A stretch of 64,000 nucleotides of DNA from Candidatus Microgenomatus sp. GTDB taxonomy: Bacteria > Patescibacteriota > Microgenomatia > UBA8517. The stretch spans positions 559,027 through 623,026 of the forward strand of contig DYGS01000001.1 in NCBI GenBank assembly GCA_020724585.1, in the 5' to 3' direction. The notes beneath the pieces were generated by a model. It searched no databases. It was not told where the DNA came from and saw only the letters and a list, made by a program, of their open reading frames with translations. Below, in pieces: positions 16,404 to 52,637 of the stretch; position 1 is the first letter of the stretch, and the number at the start of each line of letters is the position of its first letter. Made by a program: the position numbers and the translations under genes.

Positions 16404-16456
16404 TAAAAATCATTTTACCTATTTAATTTTTAAAATCTAGATGGTAAAAATACATA

Positions 16457-28984: not shown

Positions 28985-29095
28985 TTACGCCCTTTGTTAA
29001 CTAGGGCTATTTTTTTGCTAAAACAAGCGCAAAACAGGATTTCGCTTTTTTTGTGTGAGATATATAGCCATTTTGTTTTGAAAATGCTATATAAT
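28985..29095 (+). repeat. partial copy of the MITE-like repeat (core GCTTTTTTTGTGTGAGATATATAGCCATTTTGTTTTGA); here it forms the upstream region of the tRNA genes
   Basis: Aligned by eye to 4190-4240. Confidence 0.5.
29086..29095 (+). promoter_or_regulatory. extended -10 promoter element TGcTATATAAT for the tRNA-Thr/tRNA-Tyr transcript
   Basis: TGn + TATATA/TATAAT ending ~10 nt before the tRNA 5' end (29106). Confidence 0.35.
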
Positions 29096-33233: not shown

Positions 33234-34115
33234 ATGATAAAAAGTATTGCATATTCACAAAACTTATTAGTTGATGACGAATTGATCGAAAAACTTGTTT
33301 CACTTTCGAATATTGACCAAAACGATACTGTTTTAGAAATTGGAGCAGGTAAAGGAATAATAACTAAAGAACTTTTAAAAAAGGCAGGTTGTGTTGTGGT
33401 TTTTGAAATTGATGAGGAATTTGTCAGTATTCTTAAATCAATTTCTGATAATAAACTTGTAGTTAAAAACGGAAACTTCTTAGATTTTGATTTGCCAAAA
33501 GACAAGTATAAAGTTTTTGCAAACATACCATTTAATAAAACTTCTGAAATTATAAAAAGATTATTGTTTTCTAATAATCCTCCAACTAATACATATTTAG
33601 TTATTCAAAAAGAAGCAGTTGGGAGGTTTGCTGGAAAACCATTTGATAGCAAAAACGGTTTGCTTTCAGTTCTTTTTAATCCATGGTTTGAATTTGAAGT
33701 TACATATAAATTTAACAGAACAGATTTTAAACCAATACCGAATGTTGATACAGTTTTGTTAAATATTAAATTAAGAAGTACCCCAAAAGTTTTAGATCAA
33801 GACAAAGAAGCATATAGAGATTTTGTAGTTTTTGGATTTAACCAAATGGCTCCAAACATACTTGAAGGGTTATCAAAAGTTATTAATAAAAATCATATTA
33901 TAAAATTATTCAACAAACTAAACATTTCAACTGACTTAAAACCAACTGAATTAGATAAAGATATTTGGATTGAAATTTTTGAATTACTTAAATATCAAAA
34001 ACAAAACAAAAGAAACTTAATCAAAAACTCATATATTAAATGGGTTAAACAACAAGAAAATATGGAAAAAATAAATAGGACTAGGGTTGATACAGATTGG
34101 AAAAAGTTTAAATAA
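33234..34115 (+). CDS. Erm/KsgA-family rRNA adenine N6-methyltransferase (Erm-like)
   Basis: YSQNLLVDDELIEKLV, LEIGAGKGIITKEL (motif I), NIPFNKTSEII (NIPY motif). Resembles ErmC along the full length including the C-terminal domain. Confidence 0.7.
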   Translation: MIKSIAYSQNLLVDDELIEKLVSLSNIDQNDTVLEIGAGKGIITKELLKKAGCVVVFEIDEEFVSILKSISDNKLVVKNGNFLDFDLPKDKYKVFANIPFNKTSEIIKRLLFSNNPPTNTYLVIQKEAVGRFAGKPFDSKNGLLSVLFNPWFEFEVTYKFNRTDFKPIPNVDTVLLNIKLRSTPKVLDQDKEAYRDFVVFGFNQMAPNILEGLSKVINKNHIIKLFNKLNISTDLKPTELDKDIWIEIFELLKYQKQNKRNLIKNSYIKWVKQQENMEKINRTRVDTDWKKFK

Positions 34116-34182
34116 TCCCCATTCCAAGTGCTGTGCGTTAGCATATTGTACTAATTCTAAAAAAAAGATTATACTAAAGTAA

Positions 34183-34932
34183 GTGAATAAACTTGTTCTT
34201 ACAGTAGTTTTGATTCTGGGGATATTGATAGGTGGATATTTTTTGATAATACGCCTAAAAGATAGTAGTAAACCCAATCCGCCTATTAAGATTTTACAAC
34301 CATCACAGAAAGTTAGTTTTGAAACACCTAAAAAGGCCGCTCATTATGAAAGCAGTACTCCGTCTCATGGTGCAGTTTTAGCTATACCGCCTATTAATAT
34401 TGCAATTAATTTTAATTTTGATCTTGCTGATGCTTCAACTATTTCTATTACCGCAAACAAAAAGGAGTATGGAATTGACAAAACTACTGTCGATGATAAT
34501 AAACTCACATTAAGACGAAGTTTTGACCCGACAGCACCTGACGGAATTTATACAGTTTTATATAACGCCTGTTGGCCGAATGGAAGTTGCCATGACGGTA
34601 AATTCCAATTTGCAATAGATAGATCTAAGCTAAACGATGCTGTCGATATGCGAAACCAAAAAGTTGTGAATATTGATCTGTCTGGATCAACATTTATACC
34701 TAAAGATATTAGAATTAGCCAAGGAACACAAGTGATTTGGACAAATAGTGACAATGTCATTCACTATGTCAACACCGATTCACATCCTGCTCACTCGTAC
34801 TTTAAAGATCAGAATTCAAAAGCACTTAAAAAGAATGATGTCTATTCTTTAACATTTAATAACGAAGGTACATACCCCTATCATTGCAGTGCACATGCAG
34901 ATAATATGGTGGGTACTATAATTGTCGAATGA
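34183..34932 (+). CDS. membrane-anchored copper-binding protein: CopC-like domain fused to a type-1 cupredoxin domain
   Basis: N-terminal TM. H-x-G CopC-like start (HGAVLAIPP). C-terminal blue-copper ligand pattern HYVNTDSHPAH...YPYHCSAHADNMVGTIIV (H, C, H, M). Confidence 0.55.
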   Translation: MNKLVLTVVLILGILIGGYFLIIRLKDSSKPNPPIKILQPSQKVSFETPKKAAHYESSTPSHGAVLAIPPINIAINFNFDLADASTISITANKKEYGIDKTTVDDNKLTLRRSFDPTAPDGIYTVLYNACWPNGSCHDGKFQFAIDRSKLNDAVDMRNQKVVNIDLSGSTFIPKDIRISQGTQVIWTNSDNVIHYVNTDSHPAHSYFKDQNSKALKKNDVYSLTFNNEGTYPYHCSAHADNMVGTIIVE

Positions 34933-34935
34933 TAT

Positions 34936-35370
34936 TCACTCCCTTACTTTTCCGATAGACAACAATTTTTGTTTAATTTCTTTAATATCATAGTTGGCAA
35001 AGTTAACTCCATTTTTCTTGCACTCAACAAGTGCCAAAATATATCTTCGAGCTTTTCTTGCATCATCAATTTTTAAATGATTTATTGGGTTTGGCTTCTC
35101 AACTCCAAAAGTTTCAATTGAAAGTGAGGCAAAAAATATCCCCCTTGTAACATGGGCTGTATTAATAAATTCAATTGGGATCGGTCTTTCGTCTTTTGAA
35201 AATGGATTTGAGTAGATAATCGTTATTCTGTTTGTTGAAATTGTAATTTTATCGGGATAAAGCTCGAAGGGGAAAACACTCTTGGCCTCAAACAAAACCT
35301 CTTTGGAAAGTTTTGCCAGGGCTTCTAATTTATCCTCACCCGAATATACCGTTTTAGCAGTACTAGGCAT
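34936..35370 (-). CDS. hypothetical protein
   Basis: 144-aa ORF, no motif recognised. Confidence 0.4.
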   Translation of the reverse strand: MPSTAKTVYSGEDKLEALAKLSKEVLFEAKSVFPFELYPDKITISTNRITIIYSNPFSKDERPIPIEFINTAHVTRGIFFASLSIETFGVEKPNPINHLKIDDARKARRYILALVECKKNGVNFANYDIKEIKQKLLSIGKVRE

Positions 35371-35383
35371 TTAATTTCTAAAT

Positions 35384-36256
35384 TTATTGTATCATGGGTT
35401 GTCCAATTTTTGGCGTATAAGTATTAAATTCCTCTCTATTTACGATATTTTTTCCATCAAATGTAAATTTAACAAGAAGCCCCTTTTTTGTTTCCTCGCT
35501 CCACGATTGATCAAATATAAAATTCCCAAGCGAATAATATATCGGCCTGCTCATATATTCTTCATAATTTTGCACCCAATGAGGATGATGCCCAACAATT
35601 AAATCTGCGCCTAATTCAACCATTACTTTTGCTGTTTCAGTTTGAAACTTATTAGCCATATTTTTATATTCATCTCCCCAATGAGGACTAACAATTAAAA
35701 CATCAACCTTATTGTTACTTTCAGCTATTAGTTTCAAATCCTCTTCACTTAAGTTTCTATAAACTAAATTAAAACCCAAAAAACCAAAATTTGTGCCAGC
35801 TTTCTCAATTATTTCCAAATTAGTACCATCTACCCATTTAATCCCTAAATTATTTAAGTGTCTTTTTGTTTCATCTAATCCTTCTATACCAAAATTACCA
35901 CTGTGATTATTGGCAAGCGAAACTATATCAACACCCGATTCCCAAAGTCCTTTTGCAATTTCTGGTGTTGTACAAAATGAAAAACTGCCTTTATATTGCC
36001 TCGGACAGTTTTCAATAACCGCATTTTCAAGGTTTACAAAGGTTATGTCTGCATTTGATAAAAATGTTTTTACTTTTTCAAAAGGATATAAATAATTATT
36101 TCCATCAATCGCCTCCCCCATTACAGACCTTCCTAGCATTACATCGCCTGCAAACAAGATAGTTGCTTGGTTATTGGCTTCATTATTGACAATCACTTGA
36201 CGGGTAGAAATAAATGACAACAAAAAGGCAAAAACTGAAGAAATAAAATCACCCAT
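35384..36256 (-). CDS. capA: CapA/PgsA-family capsule (poly-gamma-glutamate) biosynthesis metallophosphatase
   Basis: ILFAGDVMLGRSV motif, GNHS..., HWGDEY, GHHPHW metallophosphatase signature. Confidence 0.75.
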   Translation of the reverse strand: MGDFISSVFAFLLSFISTRQVIVNNEANNQATILFAGDVMLGRSVMGEAIDGNNYLYPFEKVKTFLSNADITFVNLENAVIENCPRQYKGSFSFCTTPEIAKGLWESGVDIVSLANNHSGNFGIEGLDETKRHLNNLGIKWVDGTNLEIIEKAGTNFGFLGFNLVYRNLSEEDLKLIAESNNKVDVLIVSPHWGDEYKNMANKFQTETAKVMVELGADLIVGHHPHWVQNYEEYMSRPIYYSLGNFIFDQSWSEETKKGLLVKFTFDGKNIVNREEFNTYTPKIGQPMIQ

Positions 36257-36279
36257 ATTGTATAATCAAGTCTAGCACA

Positions 36280-36352
36280 AAAATATATTGCCTAGATAGC
36301 TCAGTTGGTAGAGCATTCCCATGGTAAGGGAAAGGTCTCGAGTTCAAATCTC
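36280..36352 (+). tRNA. tRNA-Thr (anticodon GGU)
   Basis: Acceptor GCCTAGA/TCTAGGC, D arm GCTC..GAGC, anticodon stem TTCCC/GGGAA with loop ATGGTAA, T arm TCGAG TTCAAAT CTCGA. Confidence 0.8.
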
Positions 36353-36375
36353 GATCTAGGCTCAAACTAATTTTC

Positions 36376-37572
36376 TTAAAATTCTTTTTTAAAATTGTTC
36401 AAAATCGCCTCCGCTAGTGCACTCGACAAAACGGTTGGAACAGCGTTTCCAACCTGTAGATTTCTATCCTGTCTTGATCCATAAAACTTATATGAATCTG
36501 GAAAACACTGTATTCTTGCTCCCTCTCTTGTAGTTAACGGTCTTGGTGCTTTAGGATGAATACACCTAGACGATGATGGTGTTCCTAAATTTCTGGTAAT
36601 CGTGGTTGAAGGTCTATTCCACCAAAGACGGCAATAGGTATTTTTAAAACCTGAGGATGGGCGTAAATCTTCAGGCAAATCCTTAGGTGTCCCACCGTCT
36701 GGCAATAACTCCATGATTTTTACAAGCTTTGGATTATTTCTAGGTGCATTATGGTCCATTAATTTTATCGGGGCGTTTATTCTCATTTTTCTTTGAAATT
36801 CATTTTTAGGCCCTGAAGCATATTCAAAACTCTCTTCGCCCGATTTTATAAAGGGAAGGTCACTAATAGCATCCTCAAGTGTCAAATAAGGTTTTAGCAA
36901 CCCATCAAATAATAATTGTGTATTCGATGGGTCATAATGTGTAGGCTCAGGATATTTGAAGTCACGATTAAGTTTCGACCCAATAATTACCACCCGCTCC
37001 CTTATTTGAGGTGCGCCAAAATCAGCCGCGTTAAGAACTTTATACCACACCTTGTAGCCTAATGACCGAAAAAGTGTGAGTATCGTCATTAGTAGTTCTC
37101 CGCGTTGCATTGAAAGCAATCCTTTTACATTTTCAAATAGAAAAACTCTTGGATTAAACTCACGCAGAACTCTGTAATATTCCTGGAATAGCTTACCTCT
37201 CGGATCATCTATTAGTCTTTTACCAACAGTTGAGTAAGCTTGGCATGGCGGACCACCAATCACAATATCTACCTCATTATCATAAACTCCCAAATCTTTC
37301 TTTATTTTATCAAAGTTAAAGTATTTAATATCTTCCGTATAGACTCTTACTGTTGGGTGATTTAATGAATAGGCTTTTGCCATGTTAGGCAATATTTCAT
37401 TAGCGGCAATTATTTCAAACTGTTCACAATTCGAAAAACCATAACTCAATCCGCCTACCCCACAAAATAGATCTATAACTTTAAGTTTTTTAGCCATAGT
37501 TCTAATCAAATTCAATTTCTTTATATTTAATTGGTGGTTCTGTAATTTTCCAAACAAAATAGTTTTGGTCAA
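36376..37572 (-). CDS. dcm: DNA (cytosine-5)-methyltransferase (type II R-M methylase)
   Basis: Motif I DLFCGVGG, motif IV GGPPCQAYS, motif VI ENV, motif VIII QRR. Likely true start at internal Met (MAKKLKVIDLF, ~37497), which gives a small overlap with the upstream gene. Confidence 0.85.
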   Translation of the reverse strand: MTKTILFGKLQNHQLNIKKLNLIRTMAKKLKVIDLFCGVGGLSYGFSNCEQFEIIAANEILPNMAKAYSLNHPTVRVYTEDIKYFNFDKIKKDLGVYDNEVDIVIGGPPCQAYSTVGKRLIDDPRGKLFQEYYRVLREFNPRVFLFENVKGLLSMQRGELLMTILTLFRSLGYKVWYKVLNAADFGAPQIRERVVIIGSKLNRDFKYPEPTHYDPSNTQLLFDGLLKPYLTLEDAISDLPFIKSGEESFEYASGPKNEFQRKMRINAPIKLMDHNAPRNNPKLVKIMELLPDGGTPKDLPEDLRPSSGFKNTYCRLWWNRPSTTITRNLGTPSSSRCIHPKAPRPLTTREGARIQCFPDSYKFYGSRQDRNLQVGNAVPTVLSSALAEAILNNFKKEF

Positions 37573-38278
37573 TATTAAAAACTGTCTGACCCTCCATTTG
37601 CTGCCTTGTTATCCAATTAATATTATTTTCAGATATTTGATTTAATTTTAAGAAGGCTGTCTGCCCATTATATAAATCTATATGAATTAAAATTGTCTCG
37701 ATACCCTCTAGTTCAAAAGCCTTTTTTGCTTCCAATACTTTGTGTTGTTTAATATCGTTTATTCCGCTAAAACCAGACTGCATTTCCACCTTTACTCTTT
37801 TATTATTTTCAAATTTTATTTCTAAATCAGCCTTTGGAGTTTTTTTGAACGAATTTATTTTCCTTAAGTCATCACTCCCTACTGGTTTAATTTTAGTTTT
37901 ATCAACCTCAAATATTAAACTTAGTGCTTTTGTGAAGTAATTTGAAATTACAAATCCTCTCATCCACGAAAAATAAACCTGTTCTGGTCGTCTTCCCAGA
38001 TTATTTAATCTGGGCAATATATTATTCTTTTTTATGATATCAAACGGTTCATCAATATACTTTCGACCAAACGAATTTAGATTATCGACTTTAATTTGGT
38101 CTGCAACGACAAAACTGAGATTCTTGATAATTTGGTAAAGGCGTTCATTGAGTAATTTGATATAATCAAAATCAATAGCAGGAACAACATCTTTAGCACT
38201 CAAAAAATTTTTAAAATTAGTTTGACTACTAAAGCCAAATTTTTGACGGTATTGTTTAAAATCTTCAGCGGCAAACAT
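37502..38278 (-). CDS. putative cognate type II restriction endonuclease
   Basis: 258-aa ORF immediately upstream of and overlapping the C5-methyltransferase in the same orientation. No family assignment is possible from sequence alone. Confidence 0.45.
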   Translation of the reverse strand: MFAAEDFKQYRQKFGFSSQTNFKNFLSAKDVVPAIDFDYIKLLNERLYQIIKNLSFVVADQIKVDNLNSFGRKYIDEPFDIIKKNNILPRLNNLGRRPEQVYFSWMRGFVISNYFTKALSLIFEVDKTKIKPVGSDDLRKINSFKKTPKADLEIKFENNKRVKVEMQSGFSGINDIKQHKVLEAKKAFELEGIETILIHIDLYNGQTAFLKLNQISENNINWITRQQMEGQTVFNIDQNYFVWKITEPPIKYKEIEFD

Positions 38279-38342
38279 AGTTCTTATGCATCCTATTCAC
38301 TTACCATTGTACTTTAAATTCCAAATTTTTGGAAAGCTAATG

Positions 38343-39629
38343 TCAAATCAATTTTTTAATTTTTTTCCATGTGGCTTCGTAAGAAAAATGTTTCTGGCCC
38401 AACATAAAGTTTTTTTCAACAAGGCTTTTGATTTTATGAGTATTATTTAGATAACTTAATACTCTATTTACATCTTTTTTTGCCACACTGGGAGTTATTT
38501 CAATTGCTCCAAAACCCAAAGGCTTAATGTCTTTTTTATAAACCTCATAAGGAGTTATGATTACCGGTTTTTTAAAATAAACACTTTCAATAAATTGGTT
38601 GCCAAATCCTTCAAGTTCAGTTGGATAAGTTATAAAATCTGCATTTTTAAATGCATCCCAAAGTGTATAAACCCTTCTTCCAGTTCCTGGAATTATCCTC
38701 CTTCTAGAATTAACAAAATCACCAATAAACAAAACCCTCGACCCGTATTCTTTAGTTAATTGGTGTAATTTATTCTCATACTCATGGCCCTCGTCGCCGG
38801 AATGTCCTGCTATCACAAGCACAATATTTGGATTATTAAGTTTTTTGATAAGGTCAATTGAAACTTCAATTCTTTTTCTGGGCACAATTCTTGTAGGTTG
38901 AAGGAAAACAATGTCGTGAGGGGTTATCCCAAAATCTTTTCTAAAATTCTTGGAAAAACCGTCGTGTCTACTTAATTTTTTAGATGAGAAATCAAAGCAG
39001 TCGGTAATTATATCCGATCCTAAGTTAAATCTCTTTTTTAATTCCTTTTGAGAAATAGAATTTATAACAACATCTCTAATTTCGGGTAAATCGGGCGGAA
39101 ACCATTTTTTAAAAAATGGAAACATCGAAGATTTTAAATATCTTTTTCTTTCCCACCAAAAATCATGATGTCTCGCAATTGTTGGGATTTTATATTCTTC
39201 GATAATTCTTTTTAAAGAAATTGAAAGTGGAAAATGCATTGGCAGTGAAAAAACATTGGCAACGACTAAAAGATCCGGTTTTTTGCCATTTAAAGCATCT
39301 CGTAGTGCCCCTTCAATTTTCCCCGCGATCTTAAAAATTTCAGCTTGAACCGATTTATAATTATTATTTCCATAAACTATCTTTTGATGAAGTTCATAAA
39401 CTTCCGGGGAATTAAAATGAAGCTCGGGTATGACAATTCCCCTCCTATCAAGATCACCGGCCACATATTTAACTTTAAATTCATGCCTTTTAAATATGTT
39501 TCCCCATCTAACAGCCTCAAGTGAAACGCCATCATTTCCCGCGATGCGAAAGGATAATATCCAAACCAATTTTTTGGTTTTCATGACCTTATCAATATTT
39601 AATACTTTTAACAAAAATAAATCAATCAT
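38343..39629 (-). CDS. GT4-like (GT-B fold) glycosyltransferase
   Basis: N-terminal ISFRIAGNDGVSLEAVRW; E-x7-E motif EGFGNQFIE. Confidence 0.55.
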   Translation of the reverse strand: MIDLFLLKVLNIDKVMKTKKLVWILSFRIAGNDGVSLEAVRWGNIFKRHEFKVKYVAGDLDRRGIVIPELHFNSPEVYELHQKIVYGNNNYKSVQAEIFKIAGKIEGALRDALNGKKPDLLVVANVFSLPMHFPLSISLKRIIEEYKIPTIARHHDFWWERKRYLKSSMFPFFKKWFPPDLPEIRDVVINSISQKELKKRFNLGSDIITDCFDFSSKKLSRHDGFSKNFRKDFGITPHDIVFLQPTRIVPRKRIEVSIDLIKKLNNPNIVLVIAGHSGDEGHEYENKLHQLTKEYGSRVLFIGDFVNSRRRIIPGTGRRVYTLWDAFKNADFITYPTELEGFGNQFIESVYFKKPVIITPYEVYKKDIKPLGFGAIEITPSVAKKDVNRVLSYLNNTHKIKSLVEKNFMLGQKHFSYEATWKKIKKLI

Positions 39630-39667
39630 TGAGAATTGGTAAAATTTAATTTAAAATAGCTATTTGT

Positions 39668-39853
39668 ATGGCGAAAAAAGGTGCAAGAGAAATTGTTGGC
39701 ATGATTTGTAAAGATTGCAAGTCACAGAATTATGTCACCGAAAGAAATAAGGTTAATATGGATGTTAAAGGCAGGGGCAAACTTGAACTTAAAAAATACT
39801 GTCAAACCTGCAAAAAACAAACTCTTCACAAAGAAACCTCAAAACTTAAATAG
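39668..39853 (+). CDS. rpmG: 50S ribosomal protein L33
   Basis: CKDCKSQNY...CQTCKKQTLHKETSKLK zinc ribbon pattern of L33. Confidence 0.8.
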   Translation: MAKKGAREIVGMICKDCKSQNYVTERNKVNMDVKGRGKLELKKYCQTCKKQTLHKETSKLK

Positions 39854-40020
39854 TGTGTCACTGATTTTTATTCCACCAAATTTCAACCCTTGGACAATTC
39901 TCCAGATCTTATACTTTTTAGGGTGTCTTTTTTTCATGACTACCTCGTCTATATTCCAATTAACTAGCATTAGTTAAATATAAAGCTTTTTGGTACAATA
40001 ATCTAGATTTTAAATAAAAA

Positions 40021-40111
40021 GGGTGTCGTTCAATGGTAAGCAGAGCTTGGCCATTGAACTAGTTAGATGTTCAATGGTAAACAGAGCTTGGCCATTGAAC
40101 TAGTTAGATGA
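40021..40111 (+). repeat. tandem duplication of the tRNA-Trp 5' segment: [GGGTGTC][GTTCAATGGTAA(G/A)CAGAGCTTGGCCATTGAACTAGTTAGAT] x2; each unit forms an 8-bp-stem hairpin TTCAATGG...CCATTGAA
   Basis: 40021-40038 identical to tRNA positions 40114-40131; unit repeated at 40028 and 40069. Confidence 0.8.
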
Positions 40112-40182
40112 AAGGGTGTCGTTCAATGGTAGGACATCGGTCTCCAAAACCGATAATGATAGTTCGATTCTATCCACCCTTG
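40112..40182 (+). tRNA. tRNA-Trp (anticodon CCA)
   Basis: Acceptor AAGGGTG/CACCCTT, D arm GTTC..GGAC, anticodon stem TCGGT/ACCGA with loop CTCCAAA, T arm GATAG TTCGATT CTATC, discriminator G. Confidence 0.75.
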
Positions 40183-40433
40183 CAAGAAAAGAAACACGCT
40201 CGGACAGGGTCGCCCCTGCCGGCGGGCGACCAAACAAAAAGAGCGAATTGAAGCCATTTTTGAGTACTGGTTTGAGGTGGCGGTTCTCCAAAAAGAAGTT
40301 CGATCCGGCGTTTTTTGCATGATTGGCTAAATCATGCAAATTATTTTTTGCGCGCGCGATTTTTGCCCCTGTTTTCGCGATTTTGATAAGTTCTAAAAGA
40401 GGTTCGAGTCTCCTTCCACCATTTTGATTAAAT

Positions 40434-41747
40434 TTAGACTTTTGGAGAGCAAATCTTTTGTTTTTCTTCAAAAATTTCATTCTTCTTTTTCTTGTAAACT
40501 TCAGGCTCAACAATATGCTCCAAATATCCATCAAGTAAGGTTTCCTCTTGATCCTCAAGATTTGAAATTTTTGATTGCAATTCTATTAATCTTTGAGAAG
40601 CAGATTGCTCTTCAATCAGTTTGTCTTTCTCATATAGATCCATGAATATTTTATATTCCTCGTCATCTATAGAGCATTTTAAGACCATGTTTCTAATCTG
40701 CTTCTCAAGTTCTACATCTGTTATGTATTTCTGTCTACAGTTCCCTAAACTTTTTGTGCATCTATAATAATTAAAAACAACTTTCCTGTTGGTTCTTTTG
40801 TAATATCTAGGATGGGTTTCAGCTGTAATAGCCGAACCACACTCAGCACACTTTATAAAACCGGTAAAAGGAAAGTTGTGTCCTTTAAGTCTCGGTCTTG
40901 CTAGTCTCTCCATTTGCTTTTGGACTTTGTTGAAAAGGTCTTTTGAAATGAAAGTTTTATGTGATCCTTTATACAAAACTCCGTTGTACAAAAACGTACC
41001 AACGTAAAATTTATTAGATAGCATATTTTTGACAGTATCAACTTTTAATTCCCTTTCACCTTTTCTATATATTCCACACTTAAATAACATTCTGGCAATT
41101 TCAGAATATGAAGTACCACCTTCTGCAAATTTTTCAAAAGCCTTTTTAACATATTTGGATTTTTCATCATCTACTTCAATTGATTTAATTTTCAAATCGT
41201 TGAAATATCCAATAGGAGCAAGTTTTGGCCAAACACCACGCCTTAGTTTTTCACGCAATCCTCGCTTTACATTTTCGCTTAAATTGTCAACATAATACTT
41301 GCTCTGTCCAAATGCGATTGAAAGCATAAACTTACCCTGTGGAGTATTATCAAACCAAAAAGTTGGGAACTTCAAGTCTAAAAGTTTGCCGGTATCTAAT
41401 AAATAAACAATTCTTCCGCCATCTATTGAATTTCTGGCAAGTCTATCTGGATGCCAAGAAAGAATTGCATTAGCTTCTCCTTTTTCAATTCTTTTTAAGA
41501 CCTCGGCAAACTTTTCTCTTCCAGGTTCTTTTGCGGTTTTACTTTCAGTTACAAAATCAATGACTTGAAGTTTTTCCCTTGAAGCAAACTCTTTTAATTC
41601 AGATAACTGTCCGTCAATAGACAACACCTGTCTATCTTTTTCATCAGTTGATTTTCGGCAATAACAAATGTATTTAATCATGTGGACAGAGTTCTCCTGT
41701 TTTCTAAAATTTTCGAGTTTTGTTTTTCTTCTTTTTTGTTTTGGCAA
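40434..41747 (-). CDS. large serine recombinase (phage-integrase/transposase type)
   Basis: N-terminal resolvase domain with catalytic Ser in YCRKSTDEK. Central recombinase domain. Zn-ribbon CAECGSAI...YYRCTKSLGNC. C-terminal coiled coil. Confidence 0.85.
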   Translation of the reverse strand: MPKQKRRKTKLENFRKQENSVHMIKYICYCRKSTDEKDRQVLSIDGQLSELKEFASREKLQVIDFVTESKTAKEPGREKFAEVLKRIEKGEANAILSWHPDRLARNSIDGGRIVYLLDTGKLLDLKFPTFWFDNTPQGKFMLSIAFGQSKYYVDNLSENVKRGLREKLRRGVWPKLAPIGYFNDLKIKSIEVDDEKSKYVKKAFEKFAEGGTSYSEIARMLFKCGIYRKGERELKVDTVKNMLSNKFYVGTFLYNGVLYKGSHKTFISKDLFNKVQKQMERLARPRLKGHNFPFTGFIKCAECGSAITAETHPRYYKRTNRKVVFNYYRCTKSLGNCRQKYITDVELEKQIRNMVLKCSIDDEEYKIFMDLYEKDKLIEEQSASQRLIELQSKISNLEDQEETLLDGYLEHIVEPEVYKKKKNEIFEEKQKICSPKV

Positions 41748-41847
41748 CTAAAACCAGAGTTAAAATTGCCCTTCAATCTGGTCTTTTCTGCAAGTGGCCG
41801 AATTCGGGCGGCCACGAAGCGAGAACGAATTTCCCTGTGGGCAGACT

Positions 41848-41935
41848 TGTACCGAAAAACTCGTACCGCTCTATTGTCGTAGCTCCGGCTCGTCACTTCG
41901 TTCCTCGCCTCCGCAAACGCCGGATCGAATTGTCC
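41848..41935 (+). repeat. GC-rich dispersed repeat, shortened copy D
   Basis: ...GTACCGAAAAACTCG...CCGGCTCG...CTCGCCTCCGCAAA...GGATCGAAT aligned to copy A. Confidence 0.5.
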
Positions 41936-42037
41936 TCTTGTTTTTAAAAACAAAACGAGAAAATTTTCGACAGCGACAAGCTGTCGCGCGCTATATTTTT
42001 ACTTTACTCTGTGAAGAAATTTATTCAAGCTTTAGAG

Positions 42038-42328
42038 TTATCTATCACCACATTGAGGGTGATATGAAGTTCTGATCGTAGACTCTATCCCTAGGCGCAT
42101 TTGCTCACCTGTCACTCTCAAAATATATAGATGTATATTGCCAGTTTTGCACGCTTCCCATTGTGACTGTCTTGGATGATTGGGGAATCTGTTGTTCAAA
42201 TCCTCTGTTTGTCCGACATCAAGCAGCCTCGGTTCAGCATCAATTATCGTATATACTGCCGCAATGGTATTGGTAAAACCCCTATAAGGATCGTACGGAC
42301 CTTCAAAGTTGTAACCTGATATATTCAT
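42038..42328 (-). CDS. small GIY-YIG nuclease-family protein
   Basis: AVYTIIDAEPRLLDVGQTEDLNNRFPNH = GIY...YIG...R...H pattern. Confidence 0.5.
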   Translation of the reverse strand: MNISGYNFEGPYDPYRGFTNTIAAVYTIIDAEPRLLDVGQTEDLNNRFPNHPRQSQWEACKTGNIHLYILRVTGEQMRLGIESTIRTSYHPQCGDR

Positions 42329-42347
42329 ACTTTCTTTGTTTTAGGGA

Positions 42348-42773
42348 TTGACAATCATAAAACATTGTAATAATATTACAACAGAGATGACAAAAAGTCA
42401 AGAGTTTTCTGCCCAAAACTTTGGTAGTTTCTTCAGAGATAAAAGGATTTCCCTGGGATTAAGTTTACGCAGTTTCTGTGAAAGATATGGCTACGATCCA
42501 GGAAACATAAGCAGACTCGAAAGAAACATACTTTCCCCAAGCATAGATGATGAGAAATTGGCAGGATATGCATCAGCTTTAAAAATACAAAGGGATAGCG
42601 AAGAGTGGGTACTTTTCCATGATTTAGCCCATGCCGCAAAGGGCAAAATTCCATCAGATATTAAAAATGACGAGGAAGTAATAAACATGCTTCCTGCATT
42701 TTTCCGAACAATGAGGAATAAGAAAATAGACAAGCAAAAATTGGAAAAGCTAATTCAACTACTTAAAAAATGA
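42348..42773 (+). CDS. XRE-family HTH transcriptional regulator
   Basis: FGSFFRDKRISLGLSLRSFCERYGYDPGNISRLERN helix-turn-helix. Confidence 0.75.
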   Translation: MTIIKHCNNITTEMTKSQEFSAQNFGSFFRDKRISLGLSLRSFCERYGYDPGNISRLERNILSPSIDDEKLAGYASALKIQRDSEEWVLFHDLAHAAKGKIPSDIKNDEEVINMLPAFFRTMRNKKIDKQKLEKLIQLLKK

Positions 42774-43394
42774 ATGAAAGATCCCACCTCCATATCCCTC
42801 ACCGAAGTCATAAATGCGGCTCGCGAATTCTCCAAAAAATATAACTCTGACTTAACCATTCCAACACCCATTGAAGATATTGTAGAAATACAACTTGGTA
42901 TAAAATTAATTCTTATTCAAGGATTAATACGTAACTTTAGTGTCAATGCTTTTATTACCCAAGATTTTTCTACGATTGTGGTTGATGAATACATGTTCTC
43001 GAAACAACCCGACAGAATTAGATTTACAATCGCGGAAGAAGTAGGTCATTTATTTCTACATAAAGACTGGTATTCTCTAAATGGCCCTAAATCGATTGAA
43101 GACTACTTAAAGTTTCAAGAAACAATTGACGGGAATCTTTACAGCTTTATAGAGAGACAGGCAAAAACTTTTGCGGGAATGATTTTAATTCCATCACCAG
43201 TGATCGAGCAAAAGTGGGCCGAGTTTGCTCAGAAAAATAACTTAAAAACACCATGCTTATTCTATGATTTACCTGACACCTTTCCAGACTTTGCTCGTTT
43301 ATTTCAAGTTAACCAGGTAAGTTTATTAATAAGACTCAAGGGCTTAAAATGTGTGGAGCTTCCGGACGGGTTTTGGAAAAAACTCAAAAAATAA
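42774..43394 (+). CDS. ImmA/IrrE-family metallopeptidase (COG2856-like)
   Basis: HExxH-like IAEEVGHLFLH; adjacent to and co-oriented with the XRE regulator, as in ImmR/ImmA modules of mobile elements. Confidence 0.6.
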   Translation: MKDPTSISLTEVINAAREFSKKYNSDLTIPTPIEDIVEIQLGIKLILIQGLIRNFSVNAFITQDFSTIVVDEYMFSKQPDRIRFTIAEEVGHLFLHKDWYSLNGPKSIEDYLKFQETIDGNLYSFIERQAKTFAGMILIPSPVIEQKWAEFAQKNNLKTPCLFYDLPDTFPDFARLFQVNQVSLLIRLKGLKCVELPDGFWKKLKK

Positions 43395-43404
43395 TACTAC
43401 TATT

Positions 43405-43794
43405 TCAATTCCTGCTTTCCAAAATTTTTTTCAGTTTTTCTAATATGTCTATTGTAAAAGGATCTGAAAGTTCTCCTTCATAAACCCATTCATAATATTC
43501 CATTTCACAAGAGTTGTTATCTAGTGGAGTAAATGTATATCTGACACGATAAGTTGAATTCTTTTGAGCAAAGGTAAATGTTTTGTCTTTTTCAAATTCT
43601 GTAACTTCATATTCGCTCCATACTCCTTCTTTATTTACATTTCTATATATACTTACAACTTTAACTGGCCATTCATTTGTTTCTTCTTTAACAATTGAAT
43701 TAACCCAAAGAGGTGTATTTTTCGGATCAGTAGTAAAGTTAAAAACTTCAGAAACTGGTTTATTTATCTTTATTGTTAGTTTTAAGTCTTTCAT
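43405..43794 (-). CDS. SRPBCC (START/Bet v1/AHSA1-like) domain protein
   Basis: 129 aa; beta-rich pattern [13 protein letters not shown]...[14 protein letters not shown] typical of polyketide-cyclase/AHSA1 family. Confidence 0.5.
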
Positions 43795-43813
43795 TTGATT
43801 AATAAGTATAACT

Positions 43814-45058
43814 TTACTCTGTAGATACTTCTGGTACGCGTAACTCTTCTTCCTTTTCTTTTGCTAAACTTATTTTCGCGTCTTTTTTCTTTAGAGAAAG
43901 ATAAATAGTAATAGCAATTGCAATAAGTATGGACCAAGCTACTAGAAAGTACTCAAGTTTATTTTGCGAATTCAAACTACCTATAATTGGAGCTAGTGCA
44001 ACATATGGTAAAGTACGCAAAAATGAACCAACAGAAAGTACGGTTGCACGCTGGCTTTCGTCTGTGCGGTAGTTTAATACTTCACTCATAAAAGGAACTA
44101 GTACATGTTCTCCAGCATATAAAGTTAGAATTACGATGTAACCCCACCATCCAATGTTCGCAATTGATAGCAGTAAGCTTGTGGCAGCTAAACCAGCTAT
44201 TAAAGTTAAAACTCTCTTTTCACTTAAATTATCTGCGTTTTTATGCATATATCCTAAAATACCAACGGTTATCAAACTACACGAGGCAATAACTATTGAC
44301 CCAACAAATGGACTAAAATGAAATCTATCTATTAAAACTAGACGAAGTAGCCCCCACCCAGCTGCATAGAATAAACCTTGTACTGTAATGATTATTGGGA
44401 CATAAAGAGCCAGTTTTTGTTTACTAAATTCAGTAAAGCCATTTTTTATACCTAAGAGATGCTCACGAAGTTCAAAGAAAGCTTTCTTTTTGTCTGCTTT
44501 TACTCTTTTGTCTTTAACAGACCAAACAATGGCGACAGAGCTTATCAATGAAAATCCTGTCAGTATCCATGGAATCCTAGGGTCAATATTGTGAAGCCAA
44601 CCTCCGAAAATTGTCGCAAACATACCCCCAATTAAGGCTATTTGAGAACCTCTGGTTATAAGTTTCCTCCAATCAGGAGAAGATTCCTTAAATTTCAAGT
44701 TGTCAAAAAATAATGCCTCGTCTGCGCCAGACACAAAAGATACACCAATCATCATTGTCGCCTGTCCAAATATAAATTGTCCGAGACTACTACCAAACGC
44801 TTGTATTACCAAACCAGAGCCAGCCAAAAACTGACCAAGTCTAACCATCTTGTCTCTTCCAAATTTGTCTGCCATTACGCCAGATGGTACCTCTGCCATT
44901 AGACCGATAGCAAATGCAACGCTATCTAAAATTCCAACTTGGCTGTCAGTTATATAAATTCTATAAAAATATAACCAAACAGCACCTAAAAACCAAAGAT
45001 TGGTAAGAAGCTTATAGATAAGAAACCTGGTGGAAAGCCACTTTTGACTTTTTGTCAT
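43814..45058 (-). CDS. MFS transporter
   Basis: 12 predicted TM helices; MFS motif A-like [16 protein letters not shown]. Confidence 0.8.
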
Positions 45059-45126
45059 TCTTCGACAATTATATCTCTAGGGAGTTCCTTTTTCACTACA
45101 AATAAATTATTGATATAATTCTAAAA

Positions 45127-45549
45127 ATGAAACTCCCCTGGTATGTTGTTCCAAAAACTGCCTTATTTGACTGGATTCCCTTGCTCGGAAAGTCTACTGC
45201 AAATAGTATTGGGCCATTTATCTTTATACCAACTAAAATATATATAGACTTAAAATCAGAAAATCCTAATCCCAAACACATTGCACTTCTAATTCATGAA
45301 GAAACTCACAGAAAAAGGCAAAAACAAATAGGATTTTTAAAGTTTGGAATGAAATACTTGTTTAATTCAAACTTTCGCTTTCAAGAAGAATTGATAGCCG
45401 TAAAAGAAGCTATGAAATATTTAAAGAAAAATAAAATAAAATTTGATTTTGACAAAAACTCAAAATTTCTTTCAAGTTATGTATATCTTTGGCCAGTCTC
45501 TAAAAAATATGCTGAAAAGGAACTAAAAAGAGTTTGGAATGAATTGTAG
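45127..45549 (+). CDS. HExxH-motif putative zinc metallohydrolase (DUF45/YgjP-like)
   Basis: ALLIHEETHRKRQKQ; family assignment weak. Confidence 0.35.
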   Translation: MKLPWYVVPKTALFDWIPLLGKSTANSIGPFIFIPTKIYIDLKSENPNPKHIALLIHEETHRKRQKQIGFLKFGMKYLFNSNFRFQEELIAVKEAMKYLKKNKIKFDFDKNSKFLSSYVYLWPVSKKYAEKELKRVWNEL

Positions 45550-45647
45550 CAGGGAGTTCATTAATTTCTACAAATACATTGTTCGCGCTGGGCTGGTTGG
45601 GGCAAGAACAATGTCAGGCGTTAGCCTGACCAAATCGCGCGCAAAAA

Positions 45648-45729
45648 AGCGGAGGCGAGGCCAAAGGCCGAGCCGGAGCGGAAGGTTCGGGTTATTCGAA
45701 TTGAGTTCGAATTTTTCGATACAACATTG
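45648..45729 (-). repeat. GC-rich dispersed repeat, internally deleted copy C
   Basis: AGCGGAGGCGAGGCCAAAGGCCGAGCCGGAGCG identical to copy B; flanking palindrome GTCAGGCTAACGCCTGAC. Confidence 0.6.
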
Positions 45730-45760
45730 CAAAGAAGGGAAAACAATATCATCAAAAGTC

Positions 45761-46885
45761 TCATTTTAATTTCCAATATGTAGTTGAATTTGTAATCACT
45801 TTTTGTCCCTCTCCATTTATATATGAATTGTGAACCGATTCGATAGGATCACTATTACCATCAACATGCGGAATAAATCCAAATTCACCACCTGAAACTG
45901 TCATAATAAATTCATCTCTTTTGAATAAATCCTGTGTCATGTAATGAAGCCCCTGAAAGTGAAGTGGAACACTGTCAGTTATATCGTCCTGTTCATAATA
46001 CTCTGAAAAAGCAAAAACCACATCTTTTCCTCTAAATACATTAGACAGGGCTCTGAGCGTATCAATTGCAAGATGTCTTTCTTCATGCAGGATATAACCA
46101 ATATGGACAATCAATCTACCATCTCCCACCCTCTTGGCAATTTCTTCCAAACCTTTTTCATCTTTCATGTCCAAAACACTAATTTCATATCTTTCCTCTT
46201 CAATTCCAGCATTTTGCAAATTCTCTCCCGCTGTCTCAAAAACCGCAGGATTTATATCAGTAACTAATGCTCGCACATCCGGATATGCTAATAAAAATTT
46301 TTTTGAAAAATTTCCTGATCCCGATCCTAATTCTAGAAGAATTTGTCTGTCAGGAAATTTATCACGCAAATCTCTAACAATACTATTAGATGCAGGTGAC
46401 ATCAAGGCGTCTGATGCTAGATGGTTTATGACAGGATTTCTGTATACATTCCCACCAAATCCATACGAGATTTCCCCCCTCACTATTTTGGCAAAGTTTT
46501 CAAGTAAACTCTTTTCATAACCGGAAATCAAGAGGGCAAAGGAAGCGCTATGTAATAATGGGGCCTCATATTGGCCACCAAACTCTCTCAAAAACCTCTT
46601 TTTATCCCAACCAGCAACTATTGCATAAAGTTGAAGATTTGCAAGCTCATGAGTTAGTTTTTTAAAATGTATCAGCTCTTGCGGTGAAGGTATTACCCCT
46701 CCATTTACCATCTTGAACTGTTCCAAAAATTTTAAAGCGCCAGTATAAACCTTTCCTTCTTTATCAAATTCTTGATCTTTAAGCTCATCAAGTCCAGAAA
46801 GTAAATAGTGGGCAATAGCTCCAGACAAAACTAGCTGAGGACTTAATTTTTCTCTCATTTCTGCTCTTTTGGCTATTTCTTGCAT
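45761..46885 (-). CDS. class I SAM-dependent (O-)methyltransferase with N-terminal dimerisation-like domain
   Basis: Motif I LELGSGSGNF; acidic motif II VLDMKDE; COMT-like architecture. Confidence 0.65.
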   Translation of the reverse strand: MQEIAKRAEMREKLSPQLVLSGAIAHYLLSGLDELKDQEFDKEGKVYTGALKFLEQFKMVNGGVIPSPQELIHFKKLTHELANLQLYAIVAGWDKKRFLREFGGQYEAPLLHSASFALLISGYEKSLLENFAKIVRGEISYGFGGNVYRNPVINHLASDALMSPASNSIVRDLRDKFPDRQILLELGSGSGNFSKKFLLAYPDVRALVTDINPAVFETAGENLQNAGIEEERYEISVLDMKDEKGLEEIAKRVGDGRLIVHIGYILHEERHLAIDTLRALSNVFRGKDVVFAFSEYYEQDDITDSVPLHFQGLHYMTQDLFKRDEFIMTVSGGEFGFIPHVDGNSDPIESVHNSYINGEGQKVITNSTTYWKLK

Positions 46886-47021
46886 ATAGATTTTTAAAAA
46901 TTTTTCAATTCTAGCACAATTTAAAAAAATTTGTTATAATTCCCCAAATCCTATAGTAAACACAAGTGTGCTATTTGTGTGATAGAATAATTCTCTGACT
47001 TGGTGCATAAAATTTAACAAT

Positions 47022-47339
47022 ATGACGGAACAAATGGGACCATTACATTTTCCCAGAAGCGGCTTTGTCTCCCCACCTGATGGAACATTGATTTGGGAAA
47101 CACTTTCAAATGGAACTTTTTATACAATAACTTTTCGAATTAATGAAAAAGAACTTACACACTTAGATGCTGGAAAGGTGCCTTCTGTAAATAACATTGC
47201 CGAATTACTACAAAGTACACTTAAAGATGAAATTACCAGTAATATTGGTGGAAGAACTCCTAATTTCATCAGTGATGTTTTACGAATGATAAGAACACTC
47301 CCATCTGACAGTCCGTCACACTTTAGTGAATATAACTAA
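47022..47339 (+). CDS. hypothetical protein
   Basis: 105-aa ORF, no motif. Confidence 0.3.
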   Translation: MTEQMGPLHFPRSGFVSPPDGTLIWETLSNGTFYTITFRINEKELTHLDAGKVPSVNNIAELLQSTLKDEITSNIGGRTPNFISDVLRMIRTLPSDSPSHFSEYN

Positions 47340-50913: not shown

Positions 50914-51645
50914 ATGGGAAAAATTAGAACAAAAATAATAGAAGGTTTGGGTGAGGAAGATAAAAAGTCTTCGGCGGAAGAATATGCCCAAAAAAAGGCT
51001 AAAAAATTAAGCAATTTAGAAAAAACTGCCGAGGAGAAAACTGATAAACCCAAAACTGTAAAACAAAGAGGCAAAAAATATTTGTCCTCGAAAGCAAAAG
51101 TAAATTCAGGAAATTTATACAAACTAGAAGAAGCTGTTTCATTGATTAAAGAATTTAGTAGTGCCAAATTTGATGAAACTATGGAACTACATCTTGTAGT
51201 TAGAAAGAGCGGTTATTCAGTAAATGTTACACTTCCCCATCAATTTGGCAAGCAAAAGAAAGTAGAAATAGCAAATAATGAAACTTTAAAAAAACTTGAA
51301 ATGGGCAAAATTGATTTTGATGTGCTTTTGGCAACACCTGAAATGATGCCAAAATTAGCTCCCCATGCAAGATTTTTAGGTCCCAAAGGCCTAATGCCAA
51401 ATCCTAAAAATGGAACAATTATAAAAACAGAAAAAGATGCCGCCAAATTTAACAGCAATAGCTTAAATCTAAAAACTGAGAAAGGCGCACCTTTAATTCA
51501 CACAAGTTTTGGTAAACTATCACAGGATACAAAAGAACTTGTAACAAATGCTACAGCCATAATTGATGCAATTGGTGGATCAAAACAAATAATAAAAGCC
51601 TTCATGAAGTCAACCATGTCCCCAAGTATTAAAGTCCAAATTTAA
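50914..51645 (+). CDS. rplA: 50S ribosomal protein L1 (with ~45-aa Lys/Glu-rich N-terminal extension, or a later non-ATG start)
   Basis: KYLSSKAKVNSGNLYKLEEAVSLIKE..FDETMELHLVV matches the L1 N-terminal region; conserved core throughout. Confidence 0.85.
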   Translation: MGKIRTKIIEGLGEEDKKSSAEEYAQKKAKKLSNLEKTAEEKTDKPKTVKQRGKKYLSSKAKVNSGNLYKLEEAVSLIKEFSSAKFDETMELHLVVRKSGYSVNVTLPHQFGKQKKVEIANNETLKKLEMGKIDFDVLLATPEMMPKLAPHARFLGPKGLMPNPKNGTIIKTEKDAAKFNSNSLNLKTEKGAPLIHTSFGKLSQDTKELVTNATAIIDAIGGSKQIIKAFMKSTMSPSIKVQI

Positions 51646-51651
51646 AATTAT

Positions 51652-51903
51652 CTAACCATTTTTAGTAACCATTTGTCCAGGTCTTTCGTGGTTATTTTTT
51701 CCACCTTTTAAATGAGTATTGTTATGTCTTTTTAAAACGTCCATCAATTTTCTAGAAGGTTTTCCAGAAATAACTTTATATATCTCATCATTATCTTTAT
51801 CACTAATTGGTTTAAGACGAATTATAGTAACAGGCCTTCCGTCCTCTCTAGACACATCAGTACCCTCGATACTAACTAGGTGACTTTTGAATTCAGGTAT
51901 CAT
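51652..51903 (-). CDS. hypothetical protein
   Basis: 83-aa ORF in the rplA-rplJ spacer, opposite strand. Confidence 0.25.
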   Translation of the reverse strand: MIPEFKSHLVSIEGTDVSREDGRPVTIIRLKPISDKDNDEIYKVISGKPSRKLMDVLKRHNNTHLKGGKNNHERPGQMVTKNG

Positions 51904-52019
51904 AATCGATATTATTCATCACTTCGAAGCAATTATCTTGAGTTTTTCTTGAAGACTATTTAAATATATTACCTTTAAAACAAACTCTAAAAACTTGTTT
52001 TGATAACTATCAAGTATTG

Positions 52020-52226
52020 TTAATTTCCCCATATTAAAAACTTCAAATAATTTCGGGATTCTGGATCAATTCTAGGACTTAAGTCAGACCAATACTTAAT
52101 TACTTCTTTTTTATTTAACTTTTCACCATCAAGACCATAATTTATTAGTTGAGTAATTCTCCAAAGTTTATACTTCTTAGGGTTTGATTTCTTCATCTTT
52201 TTTTCATCAACTGTCCAGTTAATCAT
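52020..52226 (-). CDS. hypothetical protein
   Basis: 68-aa ORF, Trp-containing, opposite strand. Confidence 0.25.
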   Translation of the reverse strand: MINWTVDEKKMKKSNPKKYKLWRITQLINYGLDGEKLNKKEVIKYWSDLSPRIDPESRNYLKFLIWGN

Positions 52227-52305
52227 ATTCTATTATACCATGAAGTCTAGTCCCCAGGCACAAAGATTGGGCCTTGATTTTTAGGCGTAATAGACTTACA
52301 TTGTA

Positions 52306-52536
52306 TTGTATCGTATGAGTGATATTCCACCAAATCCAGACTTAACATCCAAAGAGAAAATATTTTGGAAAAAAGCAAGGCAAAAGATACAATTTTTTGA
52401 TAAAAACCGCACACAACCGTTGCGTACTGTTAGAACTACTTCTGGCCCTTACGGAATACTTGATGACCTAAGGAGAGAAGAAAAAACAACTCCGGTTGTT
52501 CCGCCTCCACCAACTGACAACCAAAACAACGCTTGA
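52306..52536 (+). CDS. hypothetical Pro-rich protein
   Basis: 76-aa ORF in the rplJ leader region; may be spurious. Confidence 0.2.
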   Translation: MYRMSDIPPNPDLTSKEKIFWKKARQKIQFFDKNRTQPLRTVRTTSGPYGILDDLRREEKTTPVVPPPPTDNQNNA

Positions 52537-52585
52537 TATATAAATCAAGACAGGTTAAAATAACATGTCCGTAGAAATTGTGTAT

Positions 52586-52617
52586 ACGCGTAAGCAGAGC
52601 TTGGCACCGCTTCGCGT
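52586..52617 (+). promoter_or_regulatory. palindromic leader element upstream of rplJ (ACGCG-TAAGCAGAGCTTGGCACCGCTT-CGCGT); candidate L10(L12)4 autoregulatory site
   Basis: Lies 20 nt upstream of the rplJ start. Shares the 16-mer GTAAGCAGAGCTTGGC with the tandem hairpins at 40028-40109. Confidence 0.3.
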
Positions 52618-52637
52618 TGTAAATCACACCGAGGAAT

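Follow-up and report, generated by a model that had tools for sequence, protein, structure and literature searches.

Two tandem 41-nt units upstream of tRNA-Trp in the window (the whole 64,000-nt stretch of Candidatus Microgenomatus sp. DNA analyzed here) are one instance of a recurrent, tRNA-associated form of a small palindromic module. The conserved head of this module, which we call the L-box, is a dispersed, generic element of Woesebacteria/Microgenomates and in many places forms the -35 side of a promoter. We hold with middling confidence that the units are copies of the module pasted at TA(A/G) microhomology sites by template switching. To our knowledge, very little is known about promoters, regulatory DNA, and mutational processes in CPR/Patescibacteria, which do not grow alone. 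The analysis described below yields a 15-nt conserved motif that is associated with tRNA promoters and followed by a spacer in the form of a covarying palindrome; a recurrent route by which tRNA genes gain leaders from copies of their own 5' ends; and an insertion site that can be compared in its filled and empty states.

The units upstream of tRNA-Trp

The tRNA-Trp locus of the window comprises the following features.

39971-39999, + strand: probable tRNA-Trp promoter, read from the sequence; weak -35 element TAGTTA (39971-39976), 17-nt spacer, TG-extended -10 element TGGTACAAT (39991-39999)
40018-40038, + strand: truncated tRNA-Trp copy, 3 leader nt plus tRNA nt 1-18, ending at the GGTA of the D loop; 21/21 identical to 40111-40131
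40028-40068, + strand: unit 1; arms 40028-40036 and 40051-40059, L-box TAAGCAGAGCTTGGC at 40037-40051, tail TAGTTAGAT
40069-40109, + strand: unit 2; arms 40069-40077 and 40092-40100, L-box variant TAAACAGAGCTTGGC at 40078-40092
40112-40182, + strand: intact tRNA-Trp (CCA), called by ARAGORN and by Rfam (tRNA, 64.5 bits)

The repeated sequence AAAGGGTGTCGTTCAATGGTA, present at 40018-40038 and again at 40111-40131, contains the three leader bases, the 5' strand of the acceptor stem, and the D arm of tRNA-Trp. The tandem units differ from each other by a single mismatch (98% identity), and both contain a 9-bp hairpin whose arms, GTTCAATGG and CCATTGAAC, enclose TAAGCAGAGCTTGG. RNA folding gave -17.1 kcal/mol (z = -5.6) for the hairpin of unit 1 and -12.6 kcal/mol (z = -3.4) for that of unit 2. 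A sequence-only reading of this DNA had already described the repeat of the tRNA 5' end and the two tandem hairpin units, and both are present where it placed them, with the copy being 21 nt and the hairpin 9 bp long. The same reading had reported a 16-mer shared with the rplJ leader; this 16-mer, GTAAGCAGAGCTTGGC, indeed occurs exactly at 40036 and at 52590 (52590-52605), as well as with 1 mismatch at 40077. When up to 3 mismatches are allowed, the window contains four matches against 0.32 expected, a number reached in 0 of 100 shuffles.

The repeats are not an assembly artefact, since an independent Logan assembly (L002) is identical: the window matches both the 644-kb JGI contig and the Logan assembly with 100% identity, units included (stretches 33668-45853 and 36316-45676). 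ARAGORN and Rfam call only 40112-40182 as a tRNA, and the upstream copy ends at the D loop. Rfam searches of the whole window at the gathering threshold, and of 39850-40480 and 51640-52700 at E <= 10, returned only tRNAs and noise, with no ribozyme, riboswitch, or leader family that would account for the units. The three other tRNA genes of the window are without the element, and it is absent from the tRNA-Trp genes of ~30 relatives. To judge from its NusG relatives, the window organism belongs to Candidatus Woesebacteria (Microgenomates, CPR). The nearest genome available, L107, also lacks the element 5' of tRNA-Trp; given its 70% identity in the neighboring glycosyltransferase and its different tRNA-Trp allele, this genome shows absence rather than the exact boundaries of an insertion.

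The probable promoter is of a class, TGATATAAT/TGGTATAAT located 8-25 nt 5' of the tRNA, that is the same in relatives; a consensus promoter scan was silent on 39971-39999 because the -35 element is weak. An RNA transcribed from this site would run through the truncated tRNA copy and the two hairpins, both stable, into the intact tRNA.

Further tRNA-like sequences were noted in this region and at the equivalent gene of relatives. A GC-richer stretch 3' of tRNA-Trp, at 40250-40320, aligns with the tRNA-Trp allele of L107, L015, and L042 (AAGCC..GGCGGTCTCCAAAA..GTTCGAATCC..TTGC); to judge from this alignment, it is apparently a decayed pseudo-tRNA-Trp and would then point to a replacement of the tRNA gene. 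Another tRNA-like 3' end, GGTTCGAGTCTCCTTCCACCA, is found at 40401-40421. In L015 (~6990-7068) and L042 (~4320-4406), 5' halves of another tRNA-Trp allele lie directly 5' of the live gene, each followed by agggcaaRcaaaaacc, an arrangement that points to repeated allele replacement at tRNA-Trp in this lineage. Elsewhere in the window, the promoter of tRNA-Thr(tgt) (29040-29095) has a palindromic spacer, GCCATTTTG..AAAATGC, before TATATAAT; it is like the spacer of the module without the L-box and may be an old, decayed module. Truncated tRNA copies, along with an in-frame 9-aa insert described below, are traps for annotation.

The L-box at other tRNA genes and in promoters

The module consists of a conserved 14- to 15-nt head, TAAGCAGAGCTTGG(C), which is the L-box, and an inverted repeat with CC at its start and GG at its end. 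All of the modules examined start with TAAGC and are followed by TA(A/G), and at every junction TA, TAA, GGTA, or TAAG is shared (with the junction marked by a slash, -10 TA/AAAT, D-loop GGTA/G, leader TAAG/TC, and stop codons). Modules on one contig have the L-box in common, with hairpins that differ from copy to copy.

In metagenome contigs, scanning with the 19-mer TAARCAGAGCTTGGCCATT produced 22 matches, a sample biased toward one type of module because the 19-mer includes CCATT. Three of the 22 are GC rich and look like chance matches, and 14 lie no more than 130 nt 5' of a tRNA gene on the same strand (Met, Arg, Leu, Gly, Lys, or Ile). The 19-mer had 0 matches in viral contigs. At the NusG loci, which were not selected by motif, looser L-boxes stand 5' of rpmG (L017 and L020), at the rplK-rplA junction, and at other gene junctions. 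Across related genomes, the motif was found 5' of tRNA-Met, -Arg, -Leu, -Gly, -Lys, -Ile, and -Thr, at gene junctions, and in coding DNA. Our literature searches found neither the motif in a bacterial context nor any Patescibacteria tRNA promoter motif, and no Rfam family matches the module.

The commonest form of the module reads TAAGCAGAGCTTGG-CCATTTyy-loop-yy'AAATGG-TAAAAT and is followed by a tRNA after 8-18 nt or by ATG after 6-8 nt. On other contigs, the L-box lies ~17 nt 5' of a TG-extended -10 element, with a varied set of tRNA genes or, in some cases, leaderless ORFs downstream. In a set of 45 distinct L-boxes, 10 are followed by a -10-like hexamer at a spacing of 17 nt and 3 at a spacing of 18 nt, 11 of these 13 with TG, while each remaining spacing from 8 to 29 nt accounts for 0-4 cases. 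The module at L084 has a terminator directly on its 5' side, and the promoter must therefore be inside the module. The spacer is a covarying inverted repeat: in a constructed alignment of 14 modules, 97.3% of the cells pair and 20 cells are changed on both sides, a result equaled in 0 of 500 shuffles. At L083, L103, L104, L017, and L020, only 6-8 nt separate the -10 box from ATG; leaderless mRNAs are therefore implied in these CPR genomes, including that of rpmG at L017 and L020.

With the L-box serving elsewhere as the -35 side of promoters, 17-18 nt from a TG-extended -10 element and directly before tRNAs or leaderless ATG codons, the units of the window could be functional extra promoters, such that the tandem duplication of the L-box raises or regulates tRNA-Trp transcription; tandem promoter-like arrays at L098 would fit this idea. 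We consider it improbable, however. The hexamers found 17 nt after TTGGCC are TTCAAT in unit 1, which has no A at position 2, and AAAGGG in unit 2, and the promoter scan of the + strand was empty here. By the usual sigma-70 geometry (a -35-like element, 16-18 nt, and a -10 element with A at position 2 and T at position 6), the window units fail, whereas 13 of the 45 L-boxes elsewhere fit at 17-18 nt. Other cases in which the L-box is fused to a tRNA copy also lack a -10 element at 17±1 nt, and each truncated tRNA copy has a good promoter 5' of it. Since the distance from TTGGCC to the next TGG-TA element is 23 nt in one unit and 36 nt in the other, with no -10 element at 17±1 nt, the units are probably not working promoters.

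The arrangement seen in the window is present at at least nine other tRNA genes, in a recurrent order: a good promoter, a tRNA copy running from about +1 to TA (usually that of the D-loop GGTA), the L-box, the reverse complement of the copy, 8-20 nt, and the intact tRNA. The cases are as follows.

tRNA-Gly: L087/L101, L090/L092, L091
tRNA-Leu: L091, L097
tRNA-Thr: L026 (both genes), L013
pseudo-tRNAs with an insertion in the D loop: L088, L098

A search of other tRNA genes for duplications of the 5' part, as had been proposed from the window alone, showed that 13 of 117 tRNAs have a direct copy of it, 10 nt or longer, on their 5' side; with the middle of the tRNA as a control, the number was 0 of 117. 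The stem tracks the local tRNA in each case, with arms GTTCAATGG/CCATTGAAC in the window, GTGGAATGG/CCATTCCAC at L091, and CTCAGTGG/CCACTGAG at L026. At the unselected loci L026, L013, and L042, the L-box is often degenerate and the arms are still paired. In seven cases, the left edge of the tRNA repeat lies 0-5 nt from the tRNA +1 or from the likely transcription start; this is tighter than selection and proximity obviously predict, and an RNA-templated or enzyme-driven process could be involved.

Two variants of the arrangement were also observed. At L090 (~180-215) and L092 (~1670-1705), a reverse-complement L-box, GCCAAGCTTTGCTTA, is located 3' of tRNA-Gly, between copies of the tRNA 3' end (CCCGCTC/GAGCGA), as a mirror image of the 5' arrangement. 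At L088 (1693-1900), a tRNA 5' part, GGGCGCGTGGCTCAGTGGTA, is joined to the L-box and followed by an intact tRNA-Ile and then by the matching tRNA 3' half, GGTTCGATCCCAAGCGCGCCCA; apparently, a tRNA gene has been split here by ~150 nt.

Copies in a MazG-like gene and in the rplJ leader

Two further copies in the window lie outside tRNA leaders.

15927-15953, - strand: 27-nt in-frame insertion in the MazG-like ORF 15596-15970 (-), made up of the L-box and a 13-nt hairpin, CCATT-TTC-AGTGG, with TAA on both sides
52591-52605, + strand: L-box in the rplJ leader, within an apical insert of ~34 nt (~52585-52618) of a divergent L10 leader (52567-52637)

The L-box locus at 15935-15953 (-), the third in the window and one that the sequence-only reading had overlooked, is a 19-nt match, TAAGCAGAGCTTGGCCATT, plus TTCAGTGGTAAAG. 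In the product of the MazG-like ORF (Pfam MazG), the insert adds the residues KQSLAIFSG, and these 9 aa are absent from 15/15 aligned homologues, among them a protein that is 91% identical by BLASTP and 87% identical over the alignment. When the DNA was aligned with the empty site of L105, the window read AATAATTA/TAAGCAGAGCTTGGCCATTTTCAGTGG/TAAAGAC and L105 read AATAATTA/TAAAGAC. This alignment demonstrates, at the level of sequence, that the L-box and hairpin in the MazG-like gene arose by insertion. The surrounding region (14687-17485) is a nucleotide-metabolism cluster with ThyX, the MazG-like pyrophosphatase, a nucleoside 2-deoxyribosyltransferase-like gene, and a kinase-dCMP deaminase fusion; at L106, a Gp49/HTH pair adjoins the MazG-like and ThyX genes.

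The rplJ gene has its own promoter, TTGATA-17-TAAAAT, at 52533-52561, and its leader contains a core, GTCC(N)(N)AGAAA-stem ... stem-CCGAGG, that is common to ~60 relatives. The comparison with the Rfam L10_leader family (RF00557) that the sequence-only reading had recommended gave no match at 51640-52700 of the window even at E <= 10 and none at the gathering threshold in 11 relatives; the leader of L038 scored 30.1 bits (E = 0.0018), short of the 44 bits required for gathering. Because of the shared core and the sub-gathering match of L038, with no match at gathering in the window and the 11 relatives, we classify the rplJ leader as a divergent L10 leader. The leaders of this lineage resemble RF00557 in having a core ..CCUAAGA(C/A)AG-stem...stem-CCGAGG, with a terminator following in many relatives; they differ in that the 16-mer is an apical-loop insert and no part of the core and in that the window leader reaches no Rfam score.

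The 16-mer occupies the variable apical part of the leader in the window, L014, L022, L063, and L071, and it lies between the core and the terminator in L042 and L033. In L003, the closest relative (NusG 87% and L10 85% identical), the loop is empty, with GTGTGCAcaaaaGTAAGTCGCAC in place of the ~34-nt insert; most other relatives likewise have an empty loop. With TAAG at its start and TAAATC after it, the insert sits at the TAAG of the conserved TAAGTC. Although L10 is only ~57-63% identical across species (L014, L022, and L071), the L-box is near-invariant among them, which implies recognition by some conserved factor; the template-switch model names none.

These observations bear on the earlier proposal that the tRNA-Trp hairpins are remnants of a ribosomal-protein leader or autoregulatory structure. 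The 16-mer had been assigned to a palindrome 20 nt upstream of rplJ and in fact lies ~33-48 nt 5' of the ATG at 52638. The proposal itself is unsupported: the 16-mer is outside the L10 core, the loop is empty in L003, and the motif is a generic repeat found at many unrelated loci. The absence of the element at tRNA-Trp in ~30 relatives and L107 also counts against it.

Alternatively, the hairpins could be a selected RNA device in the pre-tRNA leader, acting as a processing or stability signal, as a folding decoy, or as a site shared with rplJ for a translation-related protein such as L10(L12)n. Their high stability is compatible with this reading, as are the constant match of the decoy copy to the anti-D-arm strands, the conservation of the L-box in five species within a known regulatory leader, and the arms at L026 and L013, which track the local tRNA despite a degenerate L-box. 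Yet the element is sporadic, being missing not only from tRNA-Trp in the ~30 relatives that have this gene but also from most tRNA-Thr and tRNA-Tyr genes. The pairing of the L-box changes with context, from the apex of a hairpin before the tRNA to a stem strand formed by its 5' half in rplJ, and the same sequence is found in untranscribed promoter DNA and inside an ORF. The absence of a matching Rfam family and of an L-box from most L10 leaders also speaks against such a device. We find this origin of the units quite unlikely; the leader hairpins may be functional.

Approximately 1 kb between rplA and the rplJ promoter (51652-52536) holds small minus-strand ORFs of 83 aa (51652-51903) and 68 aa (52020-52226), neither of which has a Pfam match. 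A truncated homologue of the 68-aa ORF (29 nt, 86% identical) is located at 39896-39937 (-), just after rpmG.

Origin of the units and comparison with known systems

The window contains an island (40195-47300) between tRNA-Trp and the genes for GDP-mannose dehydratase, S21, secE, and nusG. Three of its genes are the following.

40434-41747, - strand: large serine recombinase
42348-42773: XRE-like gene
42774-43394: ImmA/IrrE-like peptidase

The island further holds SRPBCC, MFS, and methyltransferase genes; in L107, tRNA-Trp and the dehydratase gene are ~0.7 kb apart, without the island genes. The serine recombinase gene lies between the arms of a 15-nt inverted repeat, TTCGATCCGGCGTTT, at 40299-40313 and 41915-41929. 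An 11-nt repeat, AAGAAAAGAAA, present in the tRNA 3' flank and at 49291, was rejected as an island boundary; its second copy lies in the S21 coding sequence and is probably due to chance. A type II restriction-modification pair is encoded on the other side of tRNA-Trp, at 36376-38278, where a C5 DNA methyltransferase gene (36376-37572, -) and a neighboring 258-aa ORF (-) lie between the tRNA-Thr(ggt) and glycosyltransferase genes.

One of the origins suggested by the sequence-only reading was tRNA-derived att-site debris, which here would have been left by repeated integration and excision of the serine-recombinase island. The recombinase together with the XRE and ImmA-like genes 3' of the tRNA, the lack of the island in L107, the apparent pseudo-tRNA-Trp of another allele at ~40250-40320, and the foreign tRNA-Trp 5' halves upstream of tRNA-Trp in L015 and L042 all go in this direction. 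However, the units are upstream of the tRNA and the island is downstream, and a self-BLAST of 39850-40450 against the window detected no copy of a unit or of the 21-mer beyond the island, near 43-49 kb. Serine integrases do not duplicate 21-41 nt, the same architecture is found at tRNA genes without a nearby recombinase, and the L-box module is present in the MazG-like gene. For the tandem units, this origin is largely refuted, and we give it very little probability. The stems are indeed tRNA copies, but they are not integrase att scars, since there is no matching copy at the far end of the adjacent island.

Template switching, the explanation that we prefer, is inferred from the anatomy of the junctions. 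The module would be copied into sites that have a few bases in common with its ends, namely, the TA of a TG-extended -10 element (TGGTA/AAAT), the tRNA D-loop GGTA/G, TAAG in the core of the L10 leader, stop codons, and, on occasion, coding sequence. The likeliest route would be microhomology-mediated template switching at replication, with one of the many resident modules as the donor. If the switch leaves from the D loop of a tRNA gene, the tRNA survives only if re-entry occurs upstream of +1, which would explain the direct repeat of the 5' end. Quasipalindrome correction would then lengthen the stem, making the 3' arm the reverse complement of the sequence 5' of the L-box, here the D arm, and a second slippage would generate the tandem pair of units. 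In the transcript, the hairpins would pair the two anti-D-arm strands with the decoy copies, and the tRNA could therefore fold; RNase P probably cuts off the whole leader.

Several other candidates were rejected. If the fused form had arisen by a single unequal crossover between AATGGTA repeats or by deletion within a pair of tandem tRNAs, an intact -10 element should lie between the L-box and the tRNA, and none is there. When compared by eye, tRNA mimicry by the L-box (D arm plus anticodon arm), a sigma-54 -24/-12 element (TGGCAC...TTGC), and CIRCE, T-box, and C/D-box (TIGR array) readings did not fit in spacing or in conserved positions.

More tentatively, and with less confidence than we place in template switching, the module could represent an undescribed class of ultra-small (24-41 nt) self-propagating CPR element, or the L-box could be the operator of a global tRNA/ribosomal-protein regulator. 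A self-propagating element would target TA in -10 boxes and tRNA D loops and, as it brings its own -35 element, would rebuild the promoter that it interrupts. It might spread by hairpin-primed copying or by copying linked to RNA or the transcription bubble, a mode of spread that would account for the start of the duplicated tRNA segment at the 5' end of the transcript. If either proposal is true, the motif would provide a handle on CPR gene expression and genome plasticity.

Among known systems, Correia elements (NEMIS) and other IS630/mariner-type bacterial MITEs are 100-160 bp long, with terminal inverted repeats of ~26 bp in all copies. Like the module, they are short, dispersed, palindromic insertions that duplicate TA at the site, supply or rebuild promoter boxes at the junction, and form RNA hairpins once transcribed. 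It is thus conceivable that the module is a true miniature transposable element moved by an enzyme encoded elsewhere, either TA specific (an IS630/mariner-derived MITE) or hairpin dependent (a REP or IS200-IS605 derivative). The clean 27-nt insertion, with TA/TAA duplicated around it in comparison to the empty site of L105, would be expected of such an element, and so would the many copies at unrelated sites, the combination of a conserved head and a hairpin, and the TGGTA that flanks the D-loop insertions at L088 and L098. Nevertheless, we regard a miniature transposon as unlikely. The module is just 24-41 nt long and lacks terminal inverted repeats, its ends AGCAG... and ...TGG not being inverted repeats; copies on one contig have only the 15-nt head in common, with hairpins that differ or stems that copy the local flank; and the direct repeats range from 2 to ~25 nt. 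No transposase is found beside any copy. A scan of ten window proteins detected no transposase and one large serine recombinase, a site-specific recombinase; this is the only recombinase nearby, and enzymes of its type make no such duplications.

In the REP family, the whole palindrome, with its GTAG head, is common within a genome, and REP, BIME, and REPIN elements are mobilized by RAYT transposases. These elements and the module are alike in that they are imperfect palindromes of ~30-35 nt with a short conserved head, dispersed and often arranged in tandem or inverted pairs. REP elements are dispersed in intergenic DNA, whereas the module is also found in coding DNA and tRNA genes, and no conserved whole palindrome with a GTAG head is seen here, as the hairpins differ between copies on the same contig (the window, L088, and L098).

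Partial duplication next to an intact tRNA gene is also known from the 178-bp repeats of E. coli tyrT, which carry the tRNA 3' end, and from integrase att duplications. Both are 3'-end copies located downstream, whereas the copies described here are always of the 5' end, lie upstream, and are joined to a conserved non-tRNA motif and to their own reverse complement.

Quasipalindrome template switching (the Ripley model) and FoSTeS/MMBIR convert imperfect inverted repeats into perfect ones and, as here, leave direct-inverted-direct copies whose junctions have 2-7 nt of microhomology. Quasipalindrome and microhomology template switches are normally one-off mutations, and we know of no description of a single conserved donor used recurrently across many genomes. 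The module thus differs from MITE and REP repeats as well as from template-switch mutations in its size, in the 15-nt head as the only shared part, in its promoter geometry, and in its link to the 5' ends of tRNA genes.
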